DNA from: an uncultured Candidatus Saccharibacteria bacterium
Lineage (GTDB): Bacteria; Patescibacteriota; Saccharimonadia; Saccharimonadales; UBA10212
Length of the DNA: 64,000 bases
Assembly: GCA_964514575.1 (NCBI GenBank)
Contig: CAZETJ010000001.1
Span: 56,014 to 120,013 of the forward strand
Reading direction: 5' to 3'
Numbering within the stretch: position 1 is the first letter of the stretch; every line of letters starts with the position of its first letter. Both the position numbers and the translations under genes were made by a program. The notes beneath the pieces are model-generated. The model worked only from the letters and a program-made list of their open reading frames with translations, did not search any database and was not told the DNA's origin. Positions 10,851 to 64,000 of the stretch are shown piece after piece.

Positions 10851-10925
10851 CCTTGGTCGCTGCCTACCGAGCCTCACCCCAGACTTCGTGGTATTATAAA
10901 GTCCGAAGAGGGCTCGAACTAACCG

Positions 10926-37393: not shown

Positions 37394-38839
37394 TTAAACC
37401 GCTCCGCTACGCTTTAAAACAGCACGGACAGTTTTAATCAAAATAACTAAATCTAGCCAGATACTCCAATTCTGGACATAGTAAAGATCAAGTTTACGGC
37501 GCTCCTCAAAATCTATATCGCGCCGGCCAGAAACTTGGGCCAGGCCAGTAAGACCCGATTTGACACTTAAAATAGCGTGCCTTTTTGCGTAGATACCCAG
37601 TTCGGCGGGAATCAGTGCCCGTGGTCCGACCAAACTAATATCGCCGCGTACGACATTGAGAAGCTGAGGCAGTTCATCCAGGCTAGTACGTCTTAAAAAT
37701 CGGCCTAGCCGGCTGATACGCGGGTCATTTGGCAAGCGGTCGCCGCCTTGGCGGTATTGCTTAATCAGCTCAGGCCGGCCCATTTTAGTGAAGCCTTCTT
37801 CCGGGCTCATATCGGTATAGGCTCGCTTCATACTGCGGAATTTATAAATCCTAACTCTAGTATTAAAGCGGCTCAGTCGAATTTCTCGGTAAAAAACTGG
37901 CCCGCCGGGATCAGACAGTTTTTCGGCGACGGCGACCAACAGCATGAAAGGCAAGCCGACCAACAGCATTACGCCGCCGACTACAATGTCCATCATTCGC
38001 TTAACTATTCGACCCCAGCCGATCAAAGCGGTTTGGTGGACGGCGATGACCGGAACCGAACCCCGGAAAAGCTCGACGGCAATGTTGCCAACGAACAACT
38101 CGCTGTTACCAGGTACGAAACGATAAGCTACGTGCTTAGTCTGGGCGTACTCTAGAACTTCATTATTAAACTCGTTATCGGCGTAAAGCTCTGTTTGGAC
38201 GATGCCGTGGATATCACCAGAATTTAAGGCCTTGATGGCCTTATCAAAAGTTTTAAAAAATGGAATGTGAGGATAGCGTTTAGCGACCTCGCCATGTCCG
38301 CCAACCACGCCAACTATCCGATAGCCAGAGATGTGACGGTCGGCCAAAACATCCACCAACTGGCGGCCAACATGAGTGTTACCAACTAGCAATAAGTTGG
38401 TTATGCCAATGTCGTATCGGAACAAAACACTACGCACGTAGCGGGCAGTGTTGCGAAAAACTAGGAGTAAAACAAACCCTAGCAGAAAGCCATAAACGGG
38501 CACTAACTTAGAAGGAAAAACCACGCGATCCGAGACGTAAGCGTAGCTGGCCACGAACAGTAGACCCACGAAAGAGCCGATCAGCAGCCGTCCAGCTTCG
38601 ACAAAGCGCTTTTCGTGGATTGAACTGGTGTAAAGGCCCAGCAACCCAAAAATTAGCAACCAAAAAGGAGTCAAAATTAAAAAAATTCCCAAATAGGTAC
38701 TGGCCGCGATTGGATGAGCCACTGGCACGTTGCTAAGCGGACCGCGCAGGGCATAGGCACCGGCAAAAGCCGCCACCAACGCCAAAAAATCGCCCACCAT
38801 CAAAAGCAAGCCATAGATGAGCGAAGCGTTACTTTTCAT
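37394..38839 (-). CDS. undecaprenyl-phosphate sugar-1-phosphate transferase (WbaP/WcaJ-type initiating enzyme)
   Basis: N-terminal 4-5 TM helices plus the C-terminal 'bacterial sugar transferase' domain (DELPQLLNVVRGDISLVGPRA…KSGLTGLAQVSGRRD…). Confidence 0.85.
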   Translation of the reverse strand: MKSNASLIYGLLLMVGDFLALVAAFAGAYALRGPLSNVPVAHPIAASTYLGIFLILTPFWLLIFGLLGLYTSSIHEKRFVEAGRLLIGSFVGLLFVASYAYVSDRVVFPSKLVPVYGFLLGFVLLLVFRNTARYVRSVLFRYDIGITNLLLVGNTHVGRQLVDVLADRHISGYRIVGVVGGHGEVAKRYPHIPFFKTFDKAIKALNSGDIHGIVQTELYADNEFNNEVLEYAQTKHVAYRFVPGNSELFVGNIAVELFRGSVPVIAVHQTALIGWGRIVKRMMDIVVGGVMLLVGLPFMLLVAVAEKLSDPGGPVFYREIRLSRFNTRVRIYKFRSMKRAYTDMSPEEGFTKMGRPELIKQYRQGGDRLPNDPRISRLGRFLRRTSLDELPQLLNVVRGDISLVGPRALIPAELGIYAKRHAILSVKSGLTGLAQVSGRRDIDFEERRKLDLYYVQNWSIWLDLVILIKTVRAVLKRSGAV

Positions 38840-49990: not shown

Positions 49991-51271
49991 AACTAGATAC
50001 TTCTCCCAAATGGGGTCGCGGTGAGCGTAACTCTGCATATCAGAAAAGTATCTGGGGTCTTGAAAAGGATCACTTTGGTCTGTTACTTCCTTCCCCCGTA
50101 ATCTTTCTTTGGTCCCCCAAACACATATAACGTCTGTAATTGCTGATGGTTCTGGCCTTTCGTACTCATACGAACGTCTATCATGAATGCGGTACACACT
50201 TAGTTGCACGTCATACTTAGAGAGCAATTCATCAGCTCTAGAATAAACGGCGGGGCTATAAATCACTTTTTGCATGCCCATGCGCCCACCTCTAGCCGCA
50301 AAGGGGAAATCCGCCTTTTTTACTCTGGCCAACGTTTGCTTTACTACCCTTTGAGCAGCCCTTTCAACTTCTTTATCAACTGTTTCTATTTTTTTCGAAG
50401 CAGCCTCGAGATTTTGTGTGACTAGCCCGTCACGCGACTGCGTTTTGACTAGGGATTTAGGCTTGTCGCTATATCCAGAGAGAGCATCTTCTAATAAGAT
50501 CCGACAAACAGTTGCCTCATCTAAATTTGGCCTGCCTTGTATATCACCTTTTAGTTTGTCATGGCCCTCTCTACTCCTAGCAATAGTTATCAACCTACGT
50601 GCAAATGTAGAAGGACTAAAAATCCCCTTATCCCTAGTCACGCTAAAGACCTTATCCCAGCTAATACCATCCGCTGGAAACGCATATTCTTCATTTTCCT
50701 TTGCATTAACCTTAACCAGCGAGACGGATGATTGTTGAATATCACCGCTTTCTGACTCCAGGCTGACCATCCAAGTTTTTCCTGCTTTGCCTAATCCTGC
50801 ATGGGAGATAAACGGTCGCAGCCAATAGTAAGTAGTATGCCCCCATTCCGTGGTCGTGGAATGACCAATTAAATCTTTCGGATTTTCGACCATTTTTTGT
50901 TTTAGCTTTTCTGCCAATTCTTTACAAGTCTCATTTTGAGACTCAAGTATGGATAACTGCTGTTCATCTAATTCATCTGCGGGTTTGAGCCTATCATTTG
51001 CAAACCTCCAACCGGGAATTTCCTCTAACTCAACTCCTTGGTAATCATAATCACCCGTATCGACATGGTCTCCGGTCCCATACCCATGCAATGGTTCGAC
51101 CTTGGCAACAGTAAAAATGCCGTTTATAACATCGGTATGCGAAAAATCAGGGTACGTATCGTAGCCGGAATACAGGGGATCTTTAAACATAACCTTATCT
51201 CCCACTACGAATTCCGGCCCGTAAAAAAGGTGTTCTGAAGAAGGCAGATTTTCTCCAACTCGATCTATCAT
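49973..51271 (-). CDS. hypothetical 432-aa protein (possible P-loop GLGKAGKT), cassette gene next to tRNA-Asn
   Basis: Long ORF. A GxxxxGKT-type motif (HAGLGKAGKTW) and a possible hhhhDE-like segment (RILLED); no family recognised. Confidence 0.55.
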   Translation of the reverse strand: MIDRVGENLPSSEHLFYGPEFVVGDKVMFKDPLYSGYDTYPDFSHTDVINGIFTVAKVEPLHGYGTGDHVDTGDYDYQGVELEEIPGWRFANDRLKPADELDEQQLSILESQNETCKELAEKLKQKMVENPKDLIGHSTTTEWGHTTYYWLRPFISHAGLGKAGKTWMVSLESESGDIQQSSVSLVKVNAKENEEYAFPADGISWDKVFSVTRDKGIFSPSTFARRLITIARSREGHDKLKGDIQGRPNLDEATVCRILLEDALSGYSDKPKSLVKTQSRDGLVTQNLEAASKKIETVDKEVERAAQRVVKQTLARVKKADFPFAARGGRMGMQKVIYSPAVYSRADELLSKYDVQLSVYRIHDRRSYEYERPEPSAITDVICVWGTKERLRGKEVTDQSDPFQDPRYFSDMQSYAHRDPIWEKYLVVPISF

Positions 51272-51312
51272 GTGTTATATAATATAACTAAAGGAGCAAA
51301 TTGTCAATATCG

Positions 51313-51387
51313 TGGCTCCGGAGGCCGGACTCGAACCGGCAACAATCGCCTTAACAGGGCGGTGCTCTACCATTGAGCTACTCCGGA
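51313..51387 (-). tRNA. tRNA-Asn (anticodon GTT)
   Basis: The reverse complement is TCCGGAGTAGCTCAATGGTAGAGCACCGCCCTGTTAAGGCGATTGTTGCCGGTTCGAGTCCGGCCTCCGGAGCCA. Acceptor stem 7/7 paired; D-arm GCTC/GAGC; anticodon loop CTGTTAA; T-arm GCCGG-TTCGAGT-CCGGC; encoded CCA. Confidence 0.8.
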
Positions 51388-51427
51388 ATATCAGCTACAA
51401 AGATATCATACCTCCTTTGAGTTCTCT

Positions 51428-53809
51428 ATGGCGAATGGACTAAACTACCTCTTAAGAAGTAGAATAAACATAAGAATGAATGATGCCGGTGGGGACTTTG
51501 ATAAATATTTGCGCACGGCCAACTACTTGACTGCTGCTCAGATATTCTTACAAGACAACTTTCTATTGGAGCGTCCGTTAAAATTTGAGGATATCAAACC
51601 CCGACTGTTAGGACACTGGGGTTCGGGTCCCGGCGTTAATTTTGCCTACTCACATCTGAGTTATCTGGCGAAGAAACATGATCAAGAGATTTTGTTCATG
51701 CTTGGCCCCGGGCACGCCTTCCCATCATTGCAGGCAAACCTATTTTTAGAGGGCACTCTTGCCAAATATTATCCGGAAGCTAAGCCGACCTATGAGGGCA
51801 TCGGCTACATCTGCAAAAACTTCAGCTGGCCCTACGGCTTTCCTAGCCACAGCAACCCGGCCACGCCCGGTGTGATCTTAGAAGGCGGAGAACTAGGCTA
51901 CTCACTGAGCACGTCTTACGGTGCGGCGCTGGATAACCCGGGCTTGATCGTGGCTTGTTTGGTCGGTGACGGCGAAGCCGAAACCGGACCGACAGCCGGG
52001 GCTTGGCATCTGAATAAGCTGCTCAACCCGTCACGCGACGGCGTAGTTTTGCCAATCCTGCACCTCAACGGTTATAAAATTTCGGCGCCGACCATTTTTG
52101 GCCGAATGAGCGACGAAGAGCTAACAGCGCTATTTACCGGGTACGGCTATCAGCCGCGAATCGTTAGCGGCGATAACGTCCATGCCCAAATGCAGGAAGC
52201 TCTGGAATGGGCCCACGCCGAGATTCAACGCATCAGACAAATCACGCCGACCAGCTGGCAGCACCTGCCGATGATTATTATGCGGACACTCAAAGGCTGG
52301 ACTGGCGTACGCGAGCTTAACGGCCAAAAAATCGAGGGTAATTGCTTATCACATCAAGTAGTTCTAACAGAAGCCAAAACTGACGAAGGCCAACTCAAGC
52401 TGTTGGAGCAGTGGTTGGGCTCATATAAAATTAACGAGCTTTTTTCACGTACAGATGGCTTTGGTCAGTTCGTCGACCAGCTTATGCCTGAACCGGCTAA
52501 ACGTATGGGCGCCAATCCGCGAGCTCTAGGCGGACCGGCGGTGCATAAGCCGCTTAAATTACCAACCGCCGAACAGTTCGCGGAGGATTCCACCAAGCCT
52601 GGAACCATCGGTTCTTCCAGCATGCGCCGCGCCGGGCTGTATTTGAACGAAGTCATAAAGCTCAACGAGGCCGAGCATAACTTCCGGATTATGTCGCCGG
52701 ACGAGACCTATTCCAACAAGCTCGATGAAATTTTTAAATCAACCAAGCGAGCCTGGATGCTGCCGATCGAGCCGTGGGATAAAGACCTAGCGCCCGATGG
52801 CCGGGTTATGGAGATGCTATCTGAGCATAACCTGCAAGGCTTGGCTCAAGGCTACGTACTGACCGGACGCCACGCCGTGTTTGCCAGCTACGAAGCCTTC
52901 GTGCCGGTGGTCACCAGCATGATGGACCAGTACGCCAAGTTCTTAAAGCAATCGCTGGATGTGCCTTGGCGCGGCGAGATCAGCTCGTTAAACTATATTT
53001 TGACATCATCCGGTTGGCGCCAAGAGCATAACGGCTTTAGCCATCAAAATCCTGGCTTTATTGCTGATGCTTTGCGCCGGCAGGGCGACTTTGTGGATGT
53101 CTTTTTCCCGCCGGACGGCAACACGACTCTGGCGGTCCTTAACTATTGCTTGTCAGCAACCCGGCAAATAAATATTATCGTGGCCGGCAAAACGTTAGAG
53201 CCGCGCTGGTTGACGCCGGAGCTGGCAGGCAAGGCTCTGCAGTCGGGCATTATGACTTGGGATTTTGCCAGCGACGATAATCCTGATGTGGTGCTGACCG
53301 CCGCCGGCGATTATCTGACCAAAGAGGCCCTGGCGGCTATCGATTTAGCTAAGCAAGAATGGCCGGACATCCGCCTGCGCTTTGTTAATATTTTGTCACT
53401 AACTAACTGCGGCCTGGGTCGCGGCGGTATGTGTCTAACCCATGAAGGCTTTAACGATTACTTTACGCCGGACAAACCAGTAATCTGCAACTTCCATGGC
53501 TATCCGGAGACACTCAAAGCCATAGTCTTTGATTATATTGCCAGCAGCCCACAGCGGTTTTCGATTCATGGCTATATCGAAAACGGCTCGACGACCACGC
53601 CATTCGATATGCACGTCCGGAACGGCACTAGCCGCTATCACCTGCTGATCGAAGCCTTCCAGAAAGTCGCCGCTACCGGTCGCCTGCCTTATGAAGAGGC
53701 CGAGCATATCATCAAAAAATATCAGCAAAAAATCGAGGACAACACTAGCTACATTAAAGAGCACGGCGTCGATATGCCGGAGATTGAGGCATGGCAATGG
53801 ACTCGCTAG
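51428..53809 (+). CDS. xfp: xylulose-5-phosphate/fructose-6-phosphate phosphoketolase
   Basis: 793 aa; N-terminal YLRTANYLTAAQIFL…GHWGSGPG and a TPP-binding region GDGEAETGP are typical of XFP. Confidence 0.9.
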   Translation: MANGLNYLLRSRINIRMNDAGGDFDKYLRTANYLTAAQIFLQDNFLLERPLKFEDIKPRLLGHWGSGPGVNFAYSHLSYLAKKHDQEILFMLGPGHAFPSLQANLFLEGTLAKYYPEAKPTYEGIGYICKNFSWPYGFPSHSNPATPGVILEGGELGYSLSTSYGAALDNPGLIVACLVGDGEAETGPTAGAWHLNKLLNPSRDGVVLPILHLNGYKISAPTIFGRMSDEELTALFTGYGYQPRIVSGDNVHAQMQEALEWAHAEIQRIRQITPTSWQHLPMIIMRTLKGWTGVRELNGQKIEGNCLSHQVVLTEAKTDEGQLKLLEQWLGSYKINELFSRTDGFGQFVDQLMPEPAKRMGANPRALGGPAVHKPLKLPTAEQFAEDSTKPGTIGSSSMRRAGLYLNEVIKLNEAEHNFRIMSPDETYSNKLDEIFKSTKRAWMLPIEPWDKDLAPDGRVMEMLSEHNLQGLAQGYVLTGRHAVFASYEAFVPVVTSMMDQYAKFLKQSLDVPWRGEISSLNYILTSSGWRQEHNGFSHQNPGFIADALRRQGDFVDVFFPPDGNTTLAVLNYCLSATRQINIIVAGKTLEPRWLTPELAGKALQSGIMTWDFASDDNPDVVLTAAGDYLTKEALAAIDLAKQEWPDIRLRFVNILSLTNCGLGRGGMCLTHEGFNDYFTPDKPVICNFHGYPETLKAIVFDYIASSPQRFSIHGYIENGSTTTPFDMHVRNGTSRYHLLIEAFQKVAATGRLPYEEAEHIIKKYQQKIEDNTSYIKEHGVDMPEIEAWQWTR

Positions 53810-54975
53810 TCTTAGTTGCCAACCCGGGCAGCGCCAGCCGTAAATACGCCCTCTACAGGGAGGATGAGTGTCTACTAAGTTTGCACTTCGAGAAAGAGAA
53901 CAGCCGAATCATTTATAGCGGAAAGATTGCCGGAAAAGACCTGGAGCCAAGGCCGGCTGATATTTCTCATCTGACTTTTACTTCCAGTAAAATCCTCCAG
54001 TTATTGACTGAGCTGGAACTTGTAAAGTCTCCAGACGACATAGGAACAATCGCCTTTAGAGTTGTGGCGCCAGCTAAGTTTTTCCAACAAGACCGGCTCC
54101 TAAACGAAGAAGCGCTGGAGAAATTAACTAGGCTAGAGCACAATGCCTTGCTGCATATTAACGCTACTTTGCAGGAAATCTCTCAGCTGCGCCAGATCTT
54201 TCCAAAGGCTAAGCTAGTCGGAGTATCGGACAGCGCGTTTCAAGCGGATAAACCATTGGTTGCAAAAATCTACGGCTTGCCGCTAGAAATCCAGAAGGAG
54301 CTGGATATCGAACGCTTCGGCTATCACGGTCTATCGGTTGAATCTGCCGTTAACCAACTAAAGGCTGTCGGCAAACTGCCCAAGCGGTTGATAGTCTGCC
54401 ACCTCGGCAGCGGTTCTAGCGTGACGGCGGTTAAGGAGGGCAAGGCCATTGATTGCAGCATGGGTTACTCACCGCTCGAAGGATTAATTATGGCGACGCG
54501 AAGCGGCAACTTAGACGTCGCGGCCGCTCTTGGCATAAAGACGCATCTTGGCATGAATAACCGGCAATTTTTAGAATATCTGAATAGCCGGGCAGGACTA
54601 CTGGGCGTCAGTGGCAGCTCGGACGACATCAGAGAACTGTTAGCCGAAGAGCAAAAAAGTGAAACCGCCAAACTAGCCCTGGATCTTTATGTCTATAAAA
54701 TCCAACAGACAGTCGGGGCGATGGCGGCGACTCTCGGCGGCATTGACGGCTTAGTCTTCACGGCGACTGTTGGCGAACGCTCCGCCGAAATCCGTAAACG
54801 CGTTCTACACGGCTTATTATTCTTGGGCCTCAGCTTGGATCCGCACCTAAATCATCATTCCGTACAGCCTGGGGAAATAGTCCAAATCAGCCCGCCACAC
54901 CACCCAGCCAAAATTTATATTGTCCCAGCCAACGAATATTCGGTGATCGCTGCTCATGCCCAAAAGTTAACTTAA
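53791..54975 (+). CDS. ackA: acetate kinase
   Basis: N-terminus VLVANPGSASRKYALY, a FGYHGLS-type region and VCHLGSGSSV; overlaps xfp by 19 nt. Confidence 0.9.
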   Translation: MAMDSLVLVANPGSASRKYALYREDECLLSLHFEKENSRIIYSGKIAGKDLEPRPADISHLTFTSSKILQLLTELELVKSPDDIGTIAFRVVAPAKFFQQDRLLNEEALEKLTRLEHNALLHINATLQEISQLRQIFPKAKLVGVSDSAFQADKPLVAKIYGLPLEIQKELDIERFGYHGLSVESAVNQLKAVGKLPKRLIVCHLGSGSSVTAVKEGKAIDCSMGYSPLEGLIMATRSGNLDVAAALGIKTHLGMNNRQFLEYLNSRAGLLGVSGSSDDIRELLAEEQKSETAKLALDLYVYKIQQTVGAMAATLGGIDGLVFTATVGERSAEIRKRVLHGLLFLGLSLDPHLNHHSVQPGEIVQISPPHHPAKIYIVPANEYSVIAAHAQKLT

Positions 54976-55215
54976 AGCTAACTGGACTCACATGCAAAAA
55001 CCACATCAGCATTGGCTTGCTAGGGCGTGCTAACATAAAGGTATTAACAAACAAGTTTGCTGGAAGCAGGTGTGATTCCTGAACTGTGCCGCAACGGTGA
55101 TTTCCGCAAGGGATAAGTCCGATACAGCATAAGCAAGAATGCTTCCGAGCAAGAGGCCAGCTTACAAAAAGCTAAATTAACCCCTGTTTCTCGGAAGCAG
55201 GGGTTATCTTTTTGG
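54976..55215 (+). ncRNA. candidate structured RNA / 5' leader ending in an intrinsic-terminator-like hairpin
   Basis: ~240-nt non-coding stretch with long-range complementarity (gctggaagca…tgcttcc…ccagc) and a duplicated GGAAGCAGG 9-mer. It ends in the hairpin aaccccug-UUUCUCGGAAG-cagggguu followed by aucuuuuu (55179-55213). Confidence 0.3.
55179..55213 (+). terminator. Rho-independent terminator/attenuator-like stem-loop
   Basis: 8-bp GC-rich stem with an 11-nt loop, followed by a U-rich tract (atcttttt); sits directly in front of the annotated TTG start of the next ORF. Confidence 0.5.
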
Positions 55216-56573
55216 GAATATCATCCGACAATCTGTCGACCGAGCGTTTTGACAAACGCTACTACGAAAAGATTCGCCAAGCCGGTGCGCTAAGTCGCGA
55301 TATAGGCCGCGTGGCTCTAAGCGGTTCCCAGCTTGAAGAGTTGGCCGGTTACGAACGTCGGCAATATGACGAAATGGCGAGCGGGTTAGCGGAGGCCTTG
55401 CAGGGTAATGTCAGGACGCACTACACCTTCGATCTAGTTGACGGCAAATTAGTTGCCGAAGACAATCAGCCGATTGAGCAGCTTATGGAGCAGGGTATAA
55501 ACCGCGCTTATGGCCTGGCTAATCAGGACAATTTTTATAAACAGTTCGTACCGCAGCGTGCCGAACACGAACTCAACGAATTCCGTAAGCAGCAGGACAT
55601 GACTACGGGACGGACAGACTACAACACGATCATAACCTTTTCGCCTTATAGCGAAGAGTTCGACACTTCACCCGAGAGTCGCGCTAAACTGGTGGCTGCC
55701 GACCAAAAACCTTACTGGCAAAGAGCTATGGTGCGAGTGTCGCACTGGGATGGCCAAAAGCTCCATATCTATACCCGCTCGATCGACAATTCCGACGTCA
55801 GCTTACTAAAAGAAACAGCCGCGCAGACATTATTCTCCGAGCTCAAAGCTACCAATTCTACGGACATGCTCGGGGAACAAATCACGCGCAAGCTACCCGC
55901 CAAAATGTGCTCCTATTTAGCAGACGTAATTGTCGGGTCAGCCGATGAGATCTTAGCCGCTAGACATGGCGGCGAATGGCACCAAGGCCGTCCTGTCCAG
56001 GAAGCCGCCGATCTGCAAGCCTTCGTAGAGTCGCAAAGCGAAGTTGTTATGCAGCTGATCAACTCCGGGCGCCAGCTGGCTCTAGAGCATGGCGCTTTTG
56101 ATAGCTACAAACAGGCGTTCAACCAAAAAGTCTACGATTATGTCGCGTTGCTTGAAGCCAGGTTAAGTTATGCTATTCATTCGCCAATTGTCGATATTGA
56201 AGCAGCGTCCTCAGCGGCTGGGGAGCTAGCCCGGTCGGAGGGCAAGGTTTATGATATGTGCGGTTTGGTTCTTAAACCCGACAACCAGTCTCTTGTAGGC
56301 ACACAGACCGGCTTTGAGAGTTTGCTGCGCCTGCAAGGCAAAAAAATCCAATGCCCGGAATGCAGACACCAGGTCGTCGTGCAAAAATCTGAATTGGCTG
56401 CCGGAAAGCTAGCTTGCCCAGATTGTGGCTACGGTGTGGATGTTTGTACCGGGCAGCGTTTTAATAAAAAGCCAACCAAGCCAGCGGCCCAGCCAAAAAC
56501 ACCTGGCTTCGTAGAACTATTAACTCAAGCGCTGAGCGAGCACGCCCGGCAACCCAAATCCGCTAAGACTTAA
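55212..56573 (+). CDS. hypothetical protein with C-terminal CxxC…CxxC zinc-ribbon
   Basis: Long ORF (453 aa from the TTG at 55212; the true start is uncertain and probably downstream of the terminator). C-terminal CPECRHQ…CPDCGY zinc-ribbon. Confidence 0.5.
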   Translation: MGISSDNLSTERFDKRYYEKIRQAGALSRDIGRVALSGSQLEELAGYERRQYDEMASGLAEALQGNVRTHYTFDLVDGKLVAEDNQPIEQLMEQGINRAYGLANQDNFYKQFVPQRAEHELNEFRKQQDMTTGRTDYNTIITFSPYSEEFDTSPESRAKLVAADQKPYWQRAMVRVSHWDGQKLHIYTRSIDNSDVSLLKETAAQTLFSELKATNSTDMLGEQITRKLPAKMCSYLADVIVGSADEILAARHGGEWHQGRPVQEAADLQAFVESQSEVVMQLINSGRQLALEHGAFDSYKQAFNQKVYDYVALLEARLSYAIHSPIVDIEAASSAAGELARSEGKVYDMCGLVLKPDNQSLVGTQTGFESLLRLQGKKIQCPECRHQVVVQKSELAAGKLACPDCGYGVDVCTGQRFNKKPTKPAAQPKTPGFVELLTQALSEHARQPKSAKT

Positions 56574-58323
56574 CTTTGGCTAGCGAAGCCATGTTATGGA
56601 CAATGGTCCGCCCTAGCTTTTTATTATGTAGTTCGTTGAGCTTTTCCAAAGCGCCGTAGTGTTTTTCTAAATAGTCTAGGTGTTTGGCTCGTGCTTTAGT
56701 AAAGGCCGATTTGCTAAGTCCGGATTTGGCAATGAACTCGCTGACTTTCTCGCTGCCAATATAGTGAGGCAGGATCACATAAGTAGCGCCGGCCTCATAG
56801 AGCTTGGCCGCTTCGGTTGGGTCGTCGGCGTGCAGGATTATGATAGCTCCCGGGTTAGCTTGCCCCAGGTGCTTCAACAAAAATATATTTACGTCAAAAT
56901 CGGGAATAGTAGAAACTACCAACTTGGCTTTATTGACCCCTGCCTCCTCTAGAAGTTCGGCGTCGGTAGCGTCGCCGTACAGATAGTTCAGCTTGCGTCG
57001 TTCCAATATATCGATGACCTCAGGGTCATAGTCAATCACCACGTATTTTTTCTTGAGCTTGCGGAAAAGATTTATAAATTCGTGTCCACCGCGCTGGTAG
57101 CCGAACAGCACTAGTTCGTAATCCGGTTCCGGCAAAGGTTCGCGCGAAGCCTTTTTGCGCTCAAACATATCAAGTTGCTTGTCGAACAGTTTAAATAACT
57201 TATCGCTGAAAGTGATCATGTAGGTAGAAGCAGCGATACTAATTAGAGTTATAAAGACAATCACTGAAACCACTTGTGATGAAATCAAGCCTTTGCTCTG
57301 GCCCAAGATTATCAAGACGATAGAAAACTCACTGACTTGGGCCAGCGAAATAGCGGCTTTAAAGCTAGTGCGCTTGGTATAGCCCAAAATGCCCATAACA
57401 ATCATGGCGACCAGCGGTTTGATAATCACAGCAACGGCTACGCCGGCGATCAACAACCCGACCATAGAGTGCAGACTGGAGAAACTCAAGTTAGAACCAA
57501 GCGAGATAAAGAAGACTATCAAAAAGAAATCGCGCAGCGGCCGCAATCGGGCGCTGATTTCTTGAGCCGAGGGTAGGGAGGCCAAGCAAATACCGGCTAG
57601 CAGTGCGCCGATTTCGCTAGACAGGCCGATCTTAGAAAATAGCGCGGCGCTGCCTAGTCCCCAGGCGATTGCAAACAGAAACAAAAATTCCTGGCTGCCG
57701 GCAATCAAGTTATGCCAGCGTGGCAAAAACCTATCGCTGACCCAGTAAATCAATCCGCCGATAACCAGCGCCTTGAATGTCAAGCCAACTAACGAACCAA
57801 GGGCTAAGCTCTGATTGTGCCCAGCCGACGTCACCACCACTAGAGCGATGGCTATAATATCTTGGACTAAAGATACGCTGACGGCTATTTTGCCGTACAG
57901 CCGTCCCTGTTCCTTTTTATCGCTAAGCAGCTTTAGGATGATGATTGTGCTAGAAATGGCTAAGCTGGCGCCGAGGAAAATCGCACCGTTGCCGGACATT
58001 CCAAAGGTGCGGCCGACAATCCAGCCCAGCAACGTTATAAAGGCCACTTGGCTGACCCCGACCATGACGGCCGTTCGACCGACCTCTTTAATAATTCTTG
58101 GGTTTAACCCCAAGCCGATGATGAAAAGCAGTAGGGCGATACCGATATCAGAAAAAAGTGTCAGCGTCGAAGGCGACTTAGCCAAATGTAAAACGCTTGG
58201 GCCGACCAGAATACCAGTCAGAATATAACCAATCAGCAGTGGCTGCTTGATCAAGCGCATAACTAAAGCCACAAGAGCCGCGATGACGATGACTAAACTC
58301 AGGCCAGGGAAAATGTTGTCCAC
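56563..58323 (-). CDS. monovalent cation:proton antiporter-2 (Kef-type) with C-terminal RCK/TrkA-N domain
   Basis: 12-13 TM Na+/H+-exchanger-family core plus a Rossmann-like C-terminal TrkA-N domain (VVLFGYQRGGHEF…); 586 aa. Confidence 0.85.
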   Translation of the reverse strand: MDNIFPGLSLVIVIAALVALVMRLIKQPLLIGYILTGILVGPSVLHLAKSPSTLTLFSDIGIALLLFIIGLGLNPRIIKEVGRTAVMVGVSQVAFITLLGWIVGRTFGMSGNGAIFLGASLAISSTIIILKLLSDKKEQGRLYGKIAVSVSLVQDIIAIALVVVTSAGHNQSLALGSLVGLTFKALVIGGLIYWVSDRFLPRWHNLIAGSQEFLFLFAIAWGLGSAALFSKIGLSSEIGALLAGICLASLPSAQEISARLRPLRDFFLIVFFISLGSNLSFSSLHSMVGLLIAGVAVAVIIKPLVAMIVMGILGYTKRTSFKAAISLAQVSEFSIVLIILGQSKGLISSQVVSVIVFITLISIAASTYMITFSDKLFKLFDKQLDMFERKKASREPLPEPDYELVLFGYQRGGHEFINLFRKLKKKYVVIDYDPEVIDILERRKLNYLYGDATDAELLEEAGVNKAKLVVSTIPDFDVNIFLLKHLGQANPGAIIILHADDPTEAAKLYEAGATYVILPHYIGSEKVSEFIAKSGLSKSAFTKARAKHLDYLEKHYGALEKLNELHNKKLGRTIVHNMASLAKVKS

Positions 58324-58365
58324 GTTTAGCTACAGTATAGCTAAACGCTAGCGCTGATGTGAATC

Positions 58366-58599
58366 TTATGCGCCGTAAGGACCACCGCCGTAGCCGCGGC
58401 GTGATTGATGGTCGGAGCCAAAACCCTTATGTCCCAAGAGCTTTAAGATTGTAGAAAAACCCAAAATAGAAACTAGGCCAGTACCTAATATAGCCAAGAA
58501 CTCTTTGCGAGTAACTTCCTTTTCTTGGATTTTATTAAGCTGATTCATGTTGCTTCGGATTATAGCATAGTGCTTATGATTGTTGGACAGGGCGCACAA
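58366..58599 (-). CDS. small single-TM protein with N-terminal T-R-K-x-F-L motif
   Basis: Likely start at the internal MNQLNK…; TRKEFLAILGTGLVSILGFSTIL resembles a (variant) twin-arginine-like signal; Gly-rich C-terminus. Confidence 0.4.
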   Translation of the reverse strand: MCALSNNHKHYAIIRSNMNQLNKIQEKEVTRKEFLAILGTGLVSILGFSTILKLLGHKGFGSDHQSRRGYGGGPYGA

Positions 58600-59491
58600 T
58601 ATCCCAGGCCAGCGGCGTGGGCCTGAGCGTTATATCGGGCTTTAGAATTACATTTTCAGTTGTCGGCGGAATGACGGTTTCCTGAGCGGCGATAACTTCA
58701 ACCCGAGATTCGCCATGTCGTCGGTTTCGCAAGTAGACAGCCAGGACCGACAGTTGGTACATCACTAAAATCGGCAGAGCGAAAAAGAGCATATTTAGGA
58801 TATCGGTGGTTGGTGCCATAATCGCCGAGGCAATAAAAGCAAAAGCAATTACGTAGCGTTCAAACGACAAGAGCCGTCTAGGGCGGAGCGGCTTAATGCG
58901 GTTAATAAAAGAAATTATAAGCGGCAGCTGGAATAGCAGTACCGATCCTAGTAGATATACAGTGATAAAGGACATATATTCTTGGATGGTCAGAAGAGGT
59001 CTAATTTGGACGCTCGTAAATTGATGCGATAGAAAATGTAGCAGTAGCGGCAGGCCTAAATAGTAGCCAAAAGCACCGCCAGCTATTGCCAGTACGACGG
59101 AGTAAAAACTGTAGTGGAAGATCAATCTTTTTGTATGACTAGCCAGTAGAGGTTCAAGATAGCGGACAACTTGGTAGACAATTACTGGAATGCTAAGAGC
59201 TATGCCAAAGTAAAGGCATACCTGGAAAAGAAAGTTTAGGCCACCACCAGGCGTCGTGTAAATAAATTGCTGACCGTGTGACGGTTTGAGCAACCAGGCG
59301 ATGATTTGCTGCTGAATAAAATAACCAGCCAAAGTAAAGCTCGCTACGGAAACAGCAATGTAATATAAGCGCTTCCGCAACTCATGAACATGCTCTAAAA
59401 ACGGTCGTTTTAGATCAAGCTTTAGGTGCGGCTGGTGGCTGTTGGCTGGATTTGGGTTTGTCGCTCTCATTTTTGTTATTTTCATTAACAT
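58574..59491 (-). CDS. tatC: Sec-independent protein translocase subunit TatC
   Basis: HVHELRKRLYYIAVSV (TatC N-terminal signature), 6 TM helices. The annotated start overlaps tatA by 77 nt; the true start is probably an alternative codon near 59420-59470. Confidence 0.8.
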   Translation of the reverse strand: MLMKITKMRATNPNPANSHQPHLKLDLKRPFLEHVHELRKRLYYIAVSVASFTLAGYFIQQQIIAWLLKPSHGQQFIYTTPGGGLNFLFQVCLYFGIALSIPVIVYQVVRYLEPLLASHTKRLIFHYSFYSVVLAIAGGAFGYYLGLPLLLHFLSHQFTSVQIRPLLTIQEYMSFITVYLLGSVLLFQLPLIISFINRIKPLRPRRLLSFERYVIAFAFIASAIMAPTTDILNMLFFALPILVMYQLSVLAVYLRNRRHGESRVEVIAAQETVIPPTTENVILKPDITLRPTPLAWDIVRPVQQS

Positions 59492-59642
59492 CGCTACTCA
59501 TGCCCTTGCGCAATTCGTGCAACGATTGGCCGATACTTCGGCTTAACTCCGGCAATTTTTTACTGCCAAATAATAGCAGCAGTATCACTAGGACGATTAA
59601 TAGTTCAGGGGTACCGATATCTAGAAGACCAAATGTTGCCAT
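59415..59642 (-). CDS. tatA: Sec-independent protein translocase subunit TatA/E
   Basis: MATFGLLDIGTPELLIVLVILLLLFGSKKLPELSRSIGQSLHELRKG is the canonical TatA sequence. Confidence 0.85.
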   Translation of the reverse strand: MATFGLLDIGTPELLIVLVILLLLFGSKKLPELSRSIGQSLHELRKGMSSDVNENNKNESDKPKSSQQPPAAPKA

Positions 59643-59737
59643 AACTTTATTTGTCCTGCCTTGTTAACTATTTTTCCACCAAGACCTATAGATATATAAT
59701 ATTATCGTAAGCGGTATAAGGCAAGGGGATTAAGTAC

Positions 59738-59989
59738 GTGCAACAATGGTCAGTAGCTGATGTTTACGGTGGAGGCAATTACGGTGCCTGTCAATATTCT
59801 GGTCAGTGCGTAAGCGGTTCCTCTACTTTAAGCACCTCTGGCTTGAGCGGTAAAACGACTACGACCGCTTTGCAACCGGCTGCGGCTAGCTACCCGTGGC
59901 TCTGGGGGGCGATCATACTCATTGCTATCCTAGTTATAATGTTTATTCGCCGGCGGCTTCGCCGTAAACAACTTGACGCTCACTCTTAA
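59738..59989 (+). CDS. small Gly/Ser/Thr-rich protein with C-terminal TM helix and poly-basic tail
   Basis: GTG start; …ASYPWLWGAIILIAILVIMFIRRRLRRKQL C-terminal anchor-like segment; immediately upstream of the tail-fibre-like paralogs. Confidence 0.45.
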   Translation: MQQWSVADVYGGGNYGACQYSGQCVSGSSTLSTSGLSGKTTTTALQPAAASYPWLWGAIILIAILVIMFIRRRLRRKQLDAHS

Positions 59990-60006
59990 ATCAACCAAAT
60001 CTCTAG

Positions 60007-60012
60007 TATAAT
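60007..60012 (+). promoter_or_regulatory. -10-like TATAAT within a duplicated promoter/5'UTR module (copy 1)
   Basis: tcaaccaaatctctagTATAATaacctcaagcgctaaagagtgatgagggag…ATG. A near-identical module (ttaaccaaacttcttgTATAATagccttaagc…aaggagtggcgaggag…ATG) precedes the second paralog. Confidence 0.35.
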
Positions 60013-60060
60013 AACCTCAAGCGCTAAAGAGTGATGAGGGAGATTTTTTAAAGACAAACA

Positions 60061-62265
60061 ATGGCTAGACTACCAATACCTGGTTCTGACGACGGCACTT
60101 GGGGAGATATCCTCAATTCTTTCCTTGAAGTCGAACATAACTCTGACGGCACCCAAAAAACTCTTCCCGTTTCCAAAGGTGGGACTGGAGCCACTAGCGC
60201 CCCCACTGCCAGAACCAACCTAGGAGCTATAGCCAGAATCCAGGATGCGACGGATGTGAACCTAGCCGGCGCGGCCGACGGCGACCCGGTCGTGTTCGAC
60301 GCGGCATCGGGCGGGGCGAAGCACACATCCCCGTCTTTTATTAGTGCCTATCGGCTAACTAGCGACGGTACGACCGTAAAAGCGTACGACAAAACGGGTG
60401 CGCAGATTGCTTCTAACGTTGACGGTGGAGCCGTTCTTCAGACGATCTTTAGCGCTCTGCCTGCTGCAGGGGGCTTCATCGAATTCCGCAACGATGGGAA
60501 CATCTTCCCTTGGACTACCACGCCCCTTATTCCGAAGAACATCAGCAGCAAGTTGCTAATCCGTGGCAACGGGGCGACTGTTAGACTCTCCGCGACCGCT
60601 CCGACCTTCCTTGATGTTAACCGTACCGCTCCTGGTGACACGTTCCAGAACTTCGAAGTCTCCGATTTCATCATTGATCGCAACAACGTGAACCCGGCCC
60701 TCGGTGCTCCCGTCGTACTCGGCGCATCCACCTCGTTCCGGATCAACTGGAACCACATCATCATCCGCCGGATCAAGACAATCAACGTCCCAACGAACGC
60801 AGGTACCGGTGCGATCAACCGAAACGTAGAAATCATCAGCTACCATACGGATGCTGGCGAAGCGCAGACCAACGTTACCGACATCCTTATCGAGGACTGC
60901 GATTTCGGGGGCGGAAACTATGGCGTTTTTGTCGGCGGGTTGGTTGTAAATGGTCGCTCCTGTGAAGTGTTCGTGGATCGTGTCAAGGTGTATCGCATTA
61001 AACACGACACGCTCAGCCTCAACAACACGACGACGCTGCGCGGCGACGTGCATGTGCATATAGGTGGTTTCGGCTTTGGCGGGAGCTGTGTCATCCGCGA
61101 CTGCGAGGGCTACAACACGGGTGACACAGGCTACGAAGTTGATTCGATGATGTTTGCGATAGTAGATGGTTGTATCGCATCTGATTACTGGTCAAAAGGT
61201 TTTCTTCTTCGCAACTTCCGGGCTGTACAAGATGTCAATTCTCAGCTTTACGTCGTTCGTGGTTGCAAAGCAGCAATAGTAAATCTCGTTGGAAATGAAT
61301 GTCCACCGATTCAGTCGCAGAACGGTTTCTGTCTTCCAACGCTGAATACAGACACCCCGTTTGGGCACATCGTTATTTCAGACTGTGAGTGGCACACCAA
61401 GCAATCTCAATTGGGGGACGGCACCGGAAATATGCTTGGCTTGGCAATCCTGAGTCTTTGGCAGATTCAGAGCATCACTGTGCGCGATTTCACTATCGTC
61501 GCTGACGCTATTGCGGACACCTACGCTGGGGGAACGCTCAGGTTTGTTGCTGCAATATATCTTTTCCCCGCCACCGACAATGCGAAGATTCGGCTGGAAA
61601 ACATCCAAGTCATCACGGCAGGCACCGTGACTTCGCAACGTCGCTTGTTTTGGATTTGGGTCGGTTCAACCGGCAGCCATCCAGTTTCTCTTACTGCCGA
61701 CGGCCTATGGTTCTCGCCAAGCACAACTGGCGGCGGCAATGGACATCAGCGGATGATCAACCTAGGTTCCGGGTCGCCGGACATTGTGACCTTGCGAGGT
61801 GTTTTGCGGCGCGGGGGTATCATCAACTACGGTTCCGACGATACGCAGCCGGTCGGGGTCGGAATCGAGGGCCAAAACCTACTTGCCATTGATGGACAGC
61901 TAGTTTTAGAGGACTGCGATTTCCGTAAGTTTCCAAGCAGTGCGGCTGATATTCAGTTCGAGGCGACCGGTACGTCGAATGCGGCGTTCGTTAACGCCGT
62001 ACGTATAAAAGGCCACATCTACCCATATTCAACAATCGTTATTACTCCGAATGGCTCGCCATTTATCTGGCAGAACCTGCTTGGCTATCGGGCAAAGCTG
62101 CTGATCTTCGGCGGCACTGTTTCGGATATCCAGTGGTCGAACGACGGTAGCACATACCGAGACACGGGTTTCATAACTGGAGCGACTATCGACGTTGACC
62201 CGGGAGACTACGTACAGGTCGCCTACACCGGAGCGCCCACAATGCGCGCCTTCCAGGTGAAATAG
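60061..62265 (+). CDS. large phage-tail-fibre-like / beta-helix (pectate-lyase-fold-like) surface protein, paralog 1
   Basis: N-terminal LPVSKGGTGATSAPTARTNLGAI is the recurrent motif of phage tail-fibre/minor-tail proteins. The remainder is Gly/Asn/Thr/Val-rich with repetitive beta-strand periodicity (…NVEIISYHTDAG…CDFGGGNYGVFVGG…) suggestive of a right-handed beta-helix. No signal peptide. Confidence 0.65.
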   Translation: MARLPIPGSDDGTWGDILNSFLEVEHNSDGTQKTLPVSKGGTGATSAPTARTNLGAIARIQDATDVNLAGAADGDPVVFDAASGGAKHTSPSFISAYRLTSDGTTVKAYDKTGAQIASNVDGGAVLQTIFSALPAAGGFIEFRNDGNIFPWTTTPLIPKNISSKLLIRGNGATVRLSATAPTFLDVNRTAPGDTFQNFEVSDFIIDRNNVNPALGAPVVLGASTSFRINWNHIIIRRIKTINVPTNAGTGAINRNVEIISYHTDAGEAQTNVTDILIEDCDFGGGNYGVFVGGLVVNGRSCEVFVDRVKVYRIKHDTLSLNNTTTLRGDVHVHIGGFGFGGSCVIRDCEGYNTGDTGYEVDSMMFAIVDGCIASDYWSKGFLLRNFRAVQDVNSQLYVVRGCKAAIVNLVGNECPPIQSQNGFCLPTLNTDTPFGHIVISDCEWHTKQSQLGDGTGNMLGLAILSLWQIQSITVRDFTIVADAIADTYAGGTLRFVAAIYLFPATDNAKIRLENIQVITAGTVTSQRRLFWIWVGSTGSHPVSLTADGLWFSPSTTGGGNGHQRMINLGSGSPDIVTLRGVLRRGGIINYGSDDTQPVGVGIEGQNLLAIDGQLVLEDCDFRKFPSSAADIQFEATGTSNAAFVNAVRIKGHIYPYSTIVITPNGSPFIWQNLLGYRAKLLIFGGTVSDIQWSNDGSTYRDTGFITGATIDVDPGDYVQVAYTGAPTMRAFQVK

Positions 62266-62306
62266 CAATCTGCGAATCGAGCCTAAAACTTTAACCAAAC
62301 TTCTTG

Positions 62307-62312
62307 TATAAT
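62307..62312 (+). promoter_or_regulatory. -10-like TATAAT within the duplicated promoter/5'UTR module (copy 2)
   Basis: See copy 1 at 60007-60012. Confidence 0.35.
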
Positions 62313-62364
62313 AGCCTTAAGCTTTTAAGGAGTGGCGAGGAGCTTTTGATAAAGATAAACACAT

Positions 62365-64000
62365 ATGGCTAGACTACCAATACCTGGCTCTGACGATGGC
62401 ACCTGGGGTGATATATTAAACTCCTTCCTCGAAGTCTCTCACAATACTGACGGAACTCTAGATAGCAGTTCGCTGACTTTTCCGGGTGATGTCACGATTG
62501 CCTCCGACTCGGACGCATCTGGTGCCGGCGATATCATACTCAAAACCTCTACCACCGAACGACTGCGCTTCAATACAGCCGGGTCGATGCTGTGGAAGAA
62601 CCACGTTCTAGTCACGCGAACCTTTCAGTCACTGCCGCGCGCAGACATTCCAGTTGGCACGAATGTTTTTGAGATCGACGAGTATGGAAATGTCCTCTTT
62701 GGGCCCAACGACTTCCTTTTTACGCGTCAAGGCAACATCTTCCAACAGGGATCCATCCCCGACTTTATGTATCACCAAGAGACCAGGCGCATCTACACAC
62801 GCTCAGCCGCTTTTGTCGAGTTCGGCGATCCGCCGGATGTAATTATCGCTCGTGCTGGGCCTGACAATATATATCCGGGCGTTGCTGGCGGCCTAGCCGG
62901 TATCCCTAGCGGCACGACCTTAGGTGTGATTCGCTGGCAAGGCTCGTTCACTCCGCAGGGTGGTACGGTCGGCGTGACGCAAGGTGGTGCGTTCCATAAT
63001 GACAGCGCACAGATATACGCCAAGGCCACCGAGGACAACAAGTTCAACGGCGGCGTGTCTTATAGTCAGGGTGGTGAGCTGCATTTCGCAACAACCCCAA
63101 ATGGCACAGCCACGCCCGTCGACGCGCTGATCATCTCAAGCGACCAGACAGTGACCGCGAAGAAGGCTCTCACAGTCGCGGGTCTGACCGGTGCGACAGC
63201 GGCGTCGCGTTACGTCGGCGCGACGGCATCCGGCGCTCCAGCTACCGGTACGTTTGCGGCCGGCGATTTCGTTGTCGATCAGTCAGGCGCATTGTGGGTC
63301 TGCGTGAGTGGTGGTACACCCGGCACCTGGAAACAAATCGGGGGCACGTTCCCTGGCGGAGCGCCCGGACTCAAAAATGCCAAGTACGTTCCGATCTTTG
63401 GCTCGAACCTAGGCACTGGTGATCACGATCTCTACACTGTCCCGGTAGGTCGCCAGGCTCTCGTTGATCGTGTTCAGACGCTTTACAACATCGCAGGTTC
63501 CGGCGGCAGTATCGTCTACTTCCCTGAGATCAAGGTTAGCGGTACCTATTACCGTGTTGGAGCCAACGTGACCGCTGCCGATGGTGCCGCCGGGTCATCG
63601 AGCATGACAACCGCGATAGTGCTTGGCGCCGGGGAAACATTCGCCTGCAACACGGCAACGACCGCCGGCCTCAATGTTCGCGGCGGTGTATGGGAGTTCG
63701 ACGCAGACGATACGCGACTATTCACGGCTCGAAAACTAGGACTCGCTTCTGGCGACAATCTGCTCTACACCTGTCCTGCGGGCAAAACAGTTGCGTTCAT
63801 TCAAGGAGCTGAGTTTGTTACATCGATGAGTTCATCAGTACAAGTTTGCAATAACACAGGCGGGAGCCTCAATTATTACCTGAACGTTGTGCCCTCCGGT
63901 GGCAGTGTTGGCCCGACCAATCGGCTCGGCCCAGCCACGGCGGTAGCTGACAAAGCAAACACCGCTTTCAACGGCGCACAACCGTTATCGCCAGGCGATT
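62365..64000 (+). CDS. paralog 2 of the tail-fibre-like protein family (partial; runs off the window end)
   Basis: ATG at 62365; the frame stays open to 64000. The first 24 aa (MARLPIPGSDDGTWGDILNSFLEV) match paralog 1 at 23/24 positions; the rest is divergent and Gly/Thr/Ala-rich. Confidence 0.65.
   Translation, partial: MARLPIPGSDDGTWGDILNSFLEVSHNTDGTLDSSSLTFPGDVTIASDSDASGAGDIILKTSTTERLRFNTAGSMLWKNHVLVTRTFQSLPRADIPVGTNVFEIDEYGNVLFGPNDFLFTRQGNIFQQGSIPDFMYHQETRRIYTRSAAFVEFGDPPDVIIARAGPDNIYPGVAGGLAGIPSGTTLGVIRWQGSFTPQGGTVGVTQGGAFHNDSAQIYAKATEDNKFNGGVSYSQGGELHFATTPNGTATPVDALIISSDQTVTAKKALTVAGLTGATAASRYVGATASGAPATGTFAAGDFVVDQSGALWVCVSGGTPGTWKQIGGTFPGGAPGLKNAKYVPIFGSNLGTGDHDLYTVPVGRQALVDRVQTLYNIAGSGGSIVYFPEIKVSGTYYRVGANVTAADGAAGSSSMTTAIVLGAGETFACNTATTAGLNVRGGVWEFDADDTRLFTARKLGLASGDNLLYTCPAGKTVAFIQGAEFVTSMSSSVQVCNNTGGSLNYYLNVVPSGGSVGPTNRLGPATAVADKANTAFNGAQPLSPGD

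Follow-up and report, generated by a model that had tools for sequence, protein, structure and literature searches.

Two consecutive open reading frames (ORFs), ORF1 and ORF2, lie at the end of a 64,000-nucleotide (nt) stretch of DNA from an uncultured Candidatus Saccharibacteria bacterium (contig CAZETJ010000001.1; the whole stretch is referred to here as the window) and share a 31-residue N-terminus, termed module A. Judged by sequence, module A defines a large, undescribed family of phage-type receptor-binding proteins, which occurs mostly in Saccharibacteria and also in phages. Our analyses further reveal that the locus is a hypervariable chromosomal cassette island, in which the shared start and an upstream module (a -10 box plus 5' untranslated region, 5'UTR) are retained and the protein bodies are exchanged between strains, and that family genes show strong linkage to tatA-tatC, which belong to the machinery for twin-arginine translocation (Tat), and to a gene for a Tat-signal mini-protein, sTat. 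The genome carrying the window belongs to a soil Saccharibacteria relative.

A shared start and the protein family it delimits

Module A has the consensus MARLPxPGSDDGTWGDILNxFLxVEHNxDGT and stands at residue 1 of both proteins, with 29 of the 31 residues identical between them; past residue 31 no similarity between ORF1 and ORF2 was found. A first-pass annotation, made from the window sequence, had given the ORF coordinates and the divergence after a common start correctly and had noticed the near-identical N-terminus, to which it assigned 24 residues instead of 31. The two features it emphasized in ORF1, beta-helix-like repeats and a tail-fibre motif, did not by themselves identify the family, which the 31-residue start does.

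The start was found at residue 1 in ~90 of the 194 proteins retrieved. When searched as a 40-position profile, it matched 6,229 representatives of clusters formed at 50% identity (E <= 1e-3), 3,580 of them at E <= 1e-10, and the match began at residue 1 in ~140 of the best 150 representatives. In the species genomes of GTDB, 233 matches were confirmed, and the best 80 of these came nearly all from metagenome-assembled genomes (MAGs) of Saccharibacteria/Saccharimonadales, together with a few other Patescibacteria and contigs binned to other phyla. Module A is absent from Pfam and NCBIfam, and a sequence search of solved structures yielded none that contain it, the best PDB match being tamavidin at a non-significant E of 1.1.

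What follows module A is diverse. A Pfam census of 88 genomic members recorded DUF5907 (21), BppL_N (17), pectate-lyase-like domains (15), Beta_helix (8) and collagen (6), besides GDSL, endosialidase N-terminal and Phage_depo_C domains and carbohydrate-binding modules (CBMs). Phages carry the same architecture: gp41 of Streptomyces phage LuckySocke consists of module A and a PF12708 beta-helix, and module-A genes were located on 38 IMG/VR contigs of 37-69% guanine plus cytosine (GC), one of them directly following a tape-measure gene.

Neither window protein shows a recognizable export signal of its own, and members of the family in general have no signal peptide. Both begin MARLPIPGSDDG, which holds one arginine and no hydrophobic region, so that they lack the twin-arginine signal that marks the N-terminus of Tat substrates (S/T-R-R-x-F-L-K and then a hydrophobic region), and inspection of the first 60 residues for a signal peptide disclosed no hydrophobic stretch. 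Fusions of a Tat signal to module A were sought among proteins in which module A starts away from residue 1, yielding only tandem repeats or mis-called starts. Module A occurs in tandem at the N-terminus of two retrieved proteins, with three copies in P0331 and two in P0370, which indicates that it is a self-contained unit of ~38 residues.

Predicted structures of the two bodies

ORF1 and ORF2 match no family in Pfam or NCBIfam, and ORF1 matches none in Pfam even at E <= 1; in particular, it has no sequence match to Beta_helix (PF13229) or Pect-lyase_RHGA_epim (PF12708). The motif KGGTGATSAPTARTNLG in ORF1, which the first-pass annotation associated with phage tail fibres, is a genuine phage tail-fibre motif, since PHROG tail-fibre families align to ORF1, over residues 11-105 only, and the motif also matches tail fibres of Klebsiella and Aeromonas phages. 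The predicted model of ORF1 (predicted local distance difference test, pLDDT, 80.7) is all-beta over residues 95-734, which form a long beta-helix. When it was compared with the PDB using Foldseek, all 32 matches at E <= 0.001 were phage tailspikes or capsule depolymerases (E 1e-6 to 1e-3, TM-scores 0.35-0.42, sequence identity ~10%), among them Klebsiella phage K64-1 S2-4 (9k4a), the HK620 tailspike (2x6x), phi29 gp12 (3suc) and LKA1 gp49 (4ru4). On this modelled fold, ORF1 is probably a tailspike-type beta-helix and a predicted glycan depolymerase or binder.

The model of ORF2 is confident only in its C-terminal beta-sandwich region. Its PDB matches are weak, one of them being the tip of the Bdellovibrio fibre Bd2133; among predicted viral structures (BFVD) it has 138 matches at E <= 0.001, with an uncharacterised protein of Caudovirales (E 1e-19) and cyanophage tail-fibre-like proteins at their head. 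Residues 256-330 form a motif common to 174 other retrieved proteins. By its predicted model, ORF2 is a phage tail-fibre-like protein with a beta-sandwich tip. The earlier suggestion that both proteins resemble phage receptor-binding proteins is thus borne out by the tailspike matches of the one and the tail-fibre-like matches of the other.

Base composition bears on where the bodies came from. ORF1 (53.8% GC) and ORF2 (56.6%) rank as the top two among the 57 genes of the window (mean 47.6%, standard deviation 2.9), and their GC at third codon positions (GC3; 0.60 and 0.585) exceeds that of the window genes (0.494, standard deviation 0.049). The GC-richness noticed at first sight is therefore real, but the excess is modest, at ~2-3 standard deviations; other regions of the window attain 52-53% GC, and in codon-usage distance neither gene is an outlier among the window genes. 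The GC3 excess is confined to the variable bodies (0.60-0.61), module A having a GC3 of 0.41-0.42. The ORF1 body has its nearest relatives (48% and 44% identity) on phage-like contigs of 61-65% GC, in proteins that do not begin with module A, which is consistent with import of the body from high-GC phages; the sequence data fit such an origin for the bodies.

A hypervariable cassette island between housekeeping genes

The DNA common to ORF1 and ORF2 begins at about position -62 (TCTCT[A/T]GTATAAT), takes in the 5'UTR and ends with codon 31. Aligned over ~200 nt, the two 5' regions have a mean column identity of 85%, in agreement with the shared upstream module and purine-rich leader reported in the first-pass annotation; the leader is ~50 nt long, and the direct repeat 60061-60152 / 62365-62456 within the aligned region is 82% identical. 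The 31 common codons differ at 13 synonymous and 2 non-synonymous positions, which argues that the shared peptide has been kept by purifying selection and does not reflect recent duplication or gene conversion. The ORF1 5'UTR carries a GGAG ribosome-binding site and a small 5' hairpin, and in the related genome L004, described below, all but one of the five paralogs have the module upstream. No -35 element of the sigma-70 type was called upstream of either ORF, so the label 'promoter' rests on the -10 box and its conservation. A third copy of the shared peptide or of the upstream module was not found within the window. Small hairpins open both 5'UTRs (window 60013-60045 and 62313-62345), with a stem that varies by paralog type (CCUCA/UGAGG vs CCUUAA/UUAAGG). 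They fold weakly (z -1 to -2), and the 5'UTR was rejected as a known RNA element on account of these scores and the lack of an Rfam match.

Table 1. Features of the ORF1/ORF2 locus, in window coordinates
Feature	Position	Strand	Length or residues	Basis or remark
ORF1	60061-62265	+	734 aa	module A, module B, beta-helix body
ORF1 module A	60061-60153	+	aa 1-31	
ORF1 tail-fibre motif ('module B')	60157-60228	+	aa 33-56	
ORF1 right-handed beta-helix body	60343-62262	+	aa ~95-734	predicted model
ORF2	62365-64000 and on	+	570 aa	last 25 codons past window end
ORF2 module A	62365-62457	+		
ORF2 low-confidence shaft		+	after module A	predicted model
ORF2 widely shared motif	63130-63354	+	aa 256-330	domain coverage
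ORF2 C-terminal beta-sandwich tip	63382 onward	+	from aa ~340	predicted model
ORF1 upstream module (-10 box and ~48-nt 5'UTR)	59998-60060	+		TATAAT 60007-60012; six paralogs, two genomes
ORF2 upstream module (-10 box and 5'UTR)	62298-62364	+		TATAAT 62307-62312
Tail-anchored protein	59738-59989	+	83 aa	upstream of ORF1
tatA	59415-59642	-		Pfam PF02416 on identical L001 gene
tatC	58574-59491	-		Pfam PF00902 on identical L001 gene
sTat	58366-58548	-	60 aa	sequence; alignment of 12 homologues

An exact-protein look-up with ORF1 gave no match, and related contigs were reached through the cluster members P0074 and P0076. The metagenome contig L001 is 99.99% identical to window positions 50061-64000 and extends 8.2 kb further, placing the ORF2 stop 77 nt past the window end. 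Downstream of it lie an ORF of 125 residues and then genes for Nramp, DsbA-like, GIY-YIG and CBS proteins and a class II aminoacyl-tRNA synthetase (Pfam tRNA-synt_2). Upstream of ORF1 stand genes for a phosphoketolase (XFP), the acetate kinase AckA, a Kef-type Na_H_Exchanger/TrkA_N transporter and the 60-residue sTat, followed by tatC and tatA. As assessed by Pfam on L001, the content of both flanks (~10 kb upstream, ~8 kb downstream) is housekeeping. No integrase, terminase, capsid, tape-measure or baseplate gene was found within ~10 kb on either side, and the flanks contain no reverse-transcriptase Pfam match. A diversity-generating retroelement was therefore rejected, there being neither a reverse transcriptase nor a template/variable repeat pair; apart from a 20-nt motif, only the shared 5' end is repeated directly.

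The same flanks recur in two related genomes. In L004, a Candidatus Saccharibacteria MAG, these enclose five module-A paralogs (775, 531, 570, 519 and 382 residues) and three small ORFs, and in L270 three paralogs (669 residues, 363 residues, and an ORF1 orthologue at 72% identity). The island therefore holds 2, 3 or 5 paralogs in three related genomes, and it is this combination of constant flanks and differing paralog sets that identifies it as hypervariable; the ORF1 and ORF2 types nonetheless persist as full-length genes in the related genomes. Cassette exchange and co-option from phages, as proposed in the first-pass annotation, accordingly stand, as does its architecture of conserved N-terminus and variable C-terminus, which is that of a large modular family. 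Other expectations failed: the array does not continue past the window in this strain, where L001 shows the 125-residue ORF and then housekeeping genes, and neither a retroelement nor a prophage (integrase or phage structural genes) lies within ~10 kb of the locus.

The 125-residue ORF (L001 14032-14409, equivalent to window 64092-64469) has no family match and is built from two repeats of ~60 residues (PYKFIVQAVVQ...LAAWA..FP). Its kin stand downstream of three of the five L004 paralogs, and another is found on a high-GC siphovirus-like contig (L020 11571-11804) behind the module-A fibre gene. A role as fibre chaperone is possible.

Linkage to the Tat system and to sTat

The first-pass annotation had passed over tatA, tatC and sTat, although they stand just upstream of the two ORFs. 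All neighbours of family genes in 75 genome loci of 20 kb were clustered. Only three neighbour families recurred, namely TatC (22 loci), a protein of ~70 residues (11 loci) and TatA (8 loci by ORF calling, 22 by tblastn), the next commonest family being present in 5 of the 75. With tatA-tatC within a few kb of family genes, 29% of the genome loci (22/75) show the linkage, against a chance expectation of ~2% for 20-kb loci of a ~1-Mb genome, and in 15 of these 22 the nearest tat-locus gene (tatA, tatC, sTat or the YG stalk described below) is less than 500 nt away. The linkage is not the property of one lineage: at 60% identity the TatC proteins of the 22 loci make up 19 clusters, and the median identity between pairs is 40%. 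Nor does it reflect one arrangement, there being at least five gene orders, among them tatA-tatC-sTat-fibre on the same strand, fibre-tatA-tatC, fibres on both sides, and the divergent order of the window. In three loci (L053, L073 and L110) the sTat stop abuts or overlaps the ATG of the family gene. Metagenomes replicate the pattern: of 23 non-redundant loci with a length of 8 kb or more, 4 contain TatC, and on six further short metagenome contigs sTat ends 3-10 nt upstream of a module-A gene.

sTat belongs to a family of at least 436 homologues of 58-79 residues without a match in Pfam or NCBIfam, and it adjoins tatC in every locus examined. Its members consist of an n-region, a motif [ST]-R-[KR]-[ED]-F-[LIM], a hydrophobic stretch of ~20 residues, a polar linker and a C-terminal G[YF][GS][SG][GS]xYG; in the alignment of 12 homologues the first arginine of the motif never varies and is followed by K or R. 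The window sTat has TRKEFL, a hydrophobic stretch of ~20 residues, a short polar linker and a C-terminal GYGGGPYGA, which we call the YG tip. Sortase genes lie a few kb from tatA-tatC-sTat in all four sTat loci retrieved (L121-L124).

YG tips on sTat, on membrane stalks and in phages

A search for a relaxed form of the tip motif, [YF][GS][GSAN][GSN]x[YF]G, in six-frame ORFs totalling 1.53 million residues gave 49 occurrences. In 21 cases the motif formed the C-terminal tip of sTat, and in 10 it belonged to a family of stalk proteins encoded beside tatA (10 of 23 tat loci), which includes the 83-residue ORF upstream of ORF1. These stalks begin with a signal peptide or a short leader, after which the mature protein has the motif at its N-terminus, a linker rich in Ser, Thr and Pro, and a C-terminal membrane anchor. 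The window stalk has an N-terminal ADVYGGGNYGA, a Ser/Thr-rich linker and a C-terminal transmembrane helix followed by RRRLRRK, in keeping with its earlier description as a small tail-anchored protein. Some stalks carry an L[PA]xTG-like motif before the anchor (IADTG, LTNTG, LANTG; loci including L057, L061 and L072), which together with the nearby sortases suggests attachment of YG stalks to the cell wall.

A further 15 of the 49 motifs stand on viral contigs, adjoining a module-A gene. In six cases the gene upstream of it ends in the motif (in L038 and L011 that gene encodes a phrog_376 tail protein), and in five or six the gene downstream has it at the N-terminus; on one phage contig the order is a small YG ORF, the module-A fibre gene and a small ORF of the PYKFIVQ (PYK) type. 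The remaining ~3-4 motifs are located elsewhere. A second viral scan drew on nearly the same contigs and is no independent replicate, adding one new locus, with a YG-start gene after the module-A gene. A triple motif, YGxGxYGxGxYG, is present in at least 120 IMG/VR contigs (for example in phrog_3287; loci L148-L227), usually at about residue 110-130 or about residue 280 of the protein. We know of no function assigned to this triple Tyr-Gly motif of phage virion proteins.

A model for export and display, and its alternatives

These observations can be joined in a single scheme. Module A would be a docking adaptor, like the N-terminal anchor domains of phage fibres, and it would have as partners the YG tips carried by sTat and by the tail-anchored stalk encoded upstream of ORF1. 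Folded, signal-less fibres, piggy-backing on sTat, would pass out of the cytoplasm through TatAC and would stay tethered to the envelope by sTat, the Tyr-Gly tip of sTat being possibly phage-derived and plugging into module A of folded tailspikes and fibres. YG stalks anchored by sortase or by their tails would form a second class of docking sites. The fibres thus displayed may bind or cut surface polysaccharides of the epibiont's bacterial host, and the turnover of cassettes may track host diversity. The parts of this scheme deserve different degrees of belief. We regard it as likely that the family comprises surface or extracellular receptor-binding cassettes of phage type with an N-terminal adaptor. 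To the explanation as a whole, in which phage-derived fibre cassettes dock by module A on YG tips, ride out on Tat and target host glycans, we give an even chance. The Tat/YG docking mechanism is put forward tentatively, as a possibility that falls clearly short of even, and it is doubtful that sTat represents a Tat signal supplied in trans, with the fibre-to-baseplate joint of phages rebuilt by Saccharibacteria and other Patescibacteria as a general system of surface display for swappable host-recognition cassettes.

Several points weigh against the scheme. No nearby tat genes were found in 53 of the 75 family loci, and in the reverse test all four sTat loci lay beside tatA-tatC and one of the four had family genes adjacent. 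Most sTat proteins carry Arg-Lys (RK), not Arg-Arg (RR), and RK variants of the signal are usually transported less well than RR. The predicted ORF1 trimer, at ~240 kDa, would be bigger than any established Tat cargo known to us. The N-terminal 94 residues of the ORF1 model, where module A lies, are of low confidence, and the internal tandem copies of module A in a few proteins would also fit a structural repeat instead of a docking adaptor. Neither ORF matches a Pfam enzyme family, so that catalytic activity of ORF1 and ORF2 is putative. The YG motif, moreover, is not specific to the family: the triple motif is common in IMG/VR virion proteins, where it is mostly internal, and module A occurs in 1 of the 80 viral loci that carry it, so its adjacency to module-A genes in phage tail modules could be incidental. 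Because the motif is widespread in phages and mostly unrelated to module A, we have given the docking idea lower weight. We infer the surface location and the contact between module A and the YG tips from sequence, and the same holds for host attachment by ORF1 and ORF2.

Part of this evidence is what would be expected if the Tat neighbourhood were a historical accident or a matter of co-regulation, with the island located beside tatAC because recombination is frequent at that spot. Export or release of the fibres would then take another route (by lysis, in vesicles, through pilus machinery or by a cryptic signal in module A), and module A would have another surface partner. The three sTat loci without adjacent family genes, the family loci without tat and the generic nature of the YG motif among phage structural proteins agree with this account, and the conserved N-domain of the Bdellovibrio MAT fibres, discussed below, offers a parallel in that its partner is also unknown (PMC10769870). 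We consider the account unlikely, if serious, in view of a linkage that holds over 19 TatC lineages and at least five gene orders, of the start/stop overlaps of the sTat family, of the replication of the linkage in metagenome contigs, and of the fact that no other neighbour family is found in more than five loci.

A second alternative takes the proteins for released polysaccharide-degrading or esterase enzymes built on phage scaffolds, which would feed the cell on plant or microbial polymers and would not be attachment fibres. Pectate-lyase-like, GDSL/SGNH, rhamnosidase, trehalase and GDPD domains and CBMs among the bodies lend it some substance, and soil Saccharibacteria have been reported to use processed plant carbon (PMC6031116). 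It sits poorly, however, with the many members that bear a collagen triple helix, BppL_N, DUF5907 fibre repeats or, like ORF2, a non-enzymatic beta-sandwich tip, and with a strain-level cassette turnover typical of recognition proteins. As a replacement for host attachment we judge it improbable; the two roles are not mutually exclusive.

It is more improbable still that ORF1 and ORF2 are leftover or satellite phage tail-fibre genes, whether a decaying prophage fragment or spare fibres for a prophage or tailocin elsewhere in the genome. Integrase, capsid, terminase, tape-measure and baseplate genes are lacking within ~10 kb on either side of the locus, the genes are intact and under purifying selection, both types are full-length in related genomes, and thousands of family members occupy chromosomal contexts of tiny genomes; against this stand the phage-like fold and motifs of both proteins, their raised GC and the phage contig on which a small YG ORF, a module-A fibre gene and a PYK-like ORF likewise follow one another. 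Finally, a polymorphic toxin cassette, with a conserved trafficking N-terminus, a variable C-terminal toxin and the 125-residue ORF as immunity gene, would have a similar layout of conserved start, variable end and small downstream ORF, but is scarcely credible given that beta-helices, beta-sandwiches and fibre repeats, and no toxin folds, make up the C-terminal bodies, and that the 125-residue ORF is rare (found only in the window's lineage and on one phage contig) and has no counterpart beside ORF1.

Other features of the window

Four further regions of the window merit mention. On the forward strand at 282-4255, in DNA of 52.5% GC, a 944-residue ORF without Pfam match is followed by a 378-residue protein with Phage_lysozyme2 and NlpC/P60 domains, and this pair may represent cell-wall hydrolases of a type IV secretion or conjugation-like system. 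The gene dnaA (8663-10042, reverse strand) is followed by a gene-free stretch of 880 nt, and the GC skew turns at ~9-10 kb, so that the region 8663-10925 is probably the replication origin. A 692-residue protein (31112-33190, reverse strand) with a D-mannose-binding lectin domain, an immunoglobulin-like domain and repeated PGSNDG adjoins a glycan-synthesis cluster (~13-30 kb), near a sugar transferase (37394-38839), and is a candidate for another surface glycan-binding protein. At 51428-56573, the phosphoketolase and acetate kinase genes are followed by a 453-residue ORF with weak zinc-ribbon matches only.

Implications

Apart from type IV pili and a small number of adhesins, little is known of how ultrasmall Patescibacteria/CPR (candidate phyla radiation) epibionts recognize and hold on to their bacterial hosts (PMC10633639, PMC9894109). 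The locus described here points to a very large unannotated family of phage-type receptor-binding proteins in such genomes, exceeding 6,000 clusters at 50% identity, which module A, as a simple sequence tag, makes searchable, and strain-level turnover of its cassettes could explain host range. In Saccharibacteria the Tat system is seldom present, and few substrates are predicted for it (Starr et al., PMC6031116); coupling of tatAC to sTat would provide a concrete route for exporting and anchoring signal-less trimeric fibres, and would give the saccharibacterial Tat system a purpose. Should module A and the YG tip prove a true docking pair, they would constitute a compact modular display system of biotechnological interest.

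Comparison with known systems

Full-text searches of the literature returned no description of tail-fibre-like families or Tat-linked fibres in Saccharibacteria, and the comparisons below are with systems from elsewhere. The Streptomyces phage proteins LuckySocke gp41 and BRock gp186 carry module A at residue 1 with 45-66% identity; in gp41 it is followed by a pectate-lyase-like beta-helix, as in many family members. These genes, however, lie in the tRNA-rich part of phage genomes of 112-116 kb, without tat or sTat context. Phage tailspike depolymerases resemble ORF1 in the predicted right-handed parallel beta-helix of its body and in the combination of an adaptor with a variable body, but ORF1 has no identified catalytic residues and is chromosomal, with no virion genes nearby. 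The receptor-binding proteins of siphophages (lactococcal BppL/RBP) likewise join a conserved N-terminal attachment module to exchangeable heads, and 17 of the 88 members in our census contain BppL_N; those proteins dock on a virion baseplate, whereas the window locus has no baseplate genes.

The export step proposed here has its precedent in Tat 'hitchhiker' transport. Co-export of signal-less partners by Tat is established and known from redox enzymes (hydrogenase small and large subunits, DmsAB, PaoABC), in which a folded protein without a signal rides on a signal-bearing partner, whose hydrophobic segment can stay behind as a membrane anchor (PMC4273604). The known carriers are folded redox-enzyme subunits, in contrast to sTat, which would be a signal-anchor with a tip of ~10 residues, and the cargo proposed here, on the strength of genomic linkage, would be a large trimeric fibre.

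By analogy of organization, the nearest analogue of the family is the set of MAT fibres of Bdellovibrio bacteriovorus (Caulton et al. 2024, PMC10769870). No sequence similarity to the MAT fibres turned up, no search having been aimed at them, and the differences are clear: MAT fibres possess a Sec signal peptide and a conserved, beta-rich N-domain of ~130 residues (PMC10769870), whereas module A comprises ~31 residues at position 1 without a signal peptide, is also found in phage proteins, and belongs to genes linked to tatAC and a Tat-signal mini-protein. In both cases, nevertheless, a bacterium that lives on other bacteria would possess a multi-copy chromosomal family of this kind, and the MAT fibres, with their phage-like trimeric shafts, invariant N-terminus presumed to serve as an anchor, and swappable C-terminal tips (PMC10769870), display the same plan that we propose for the module-A proteins.

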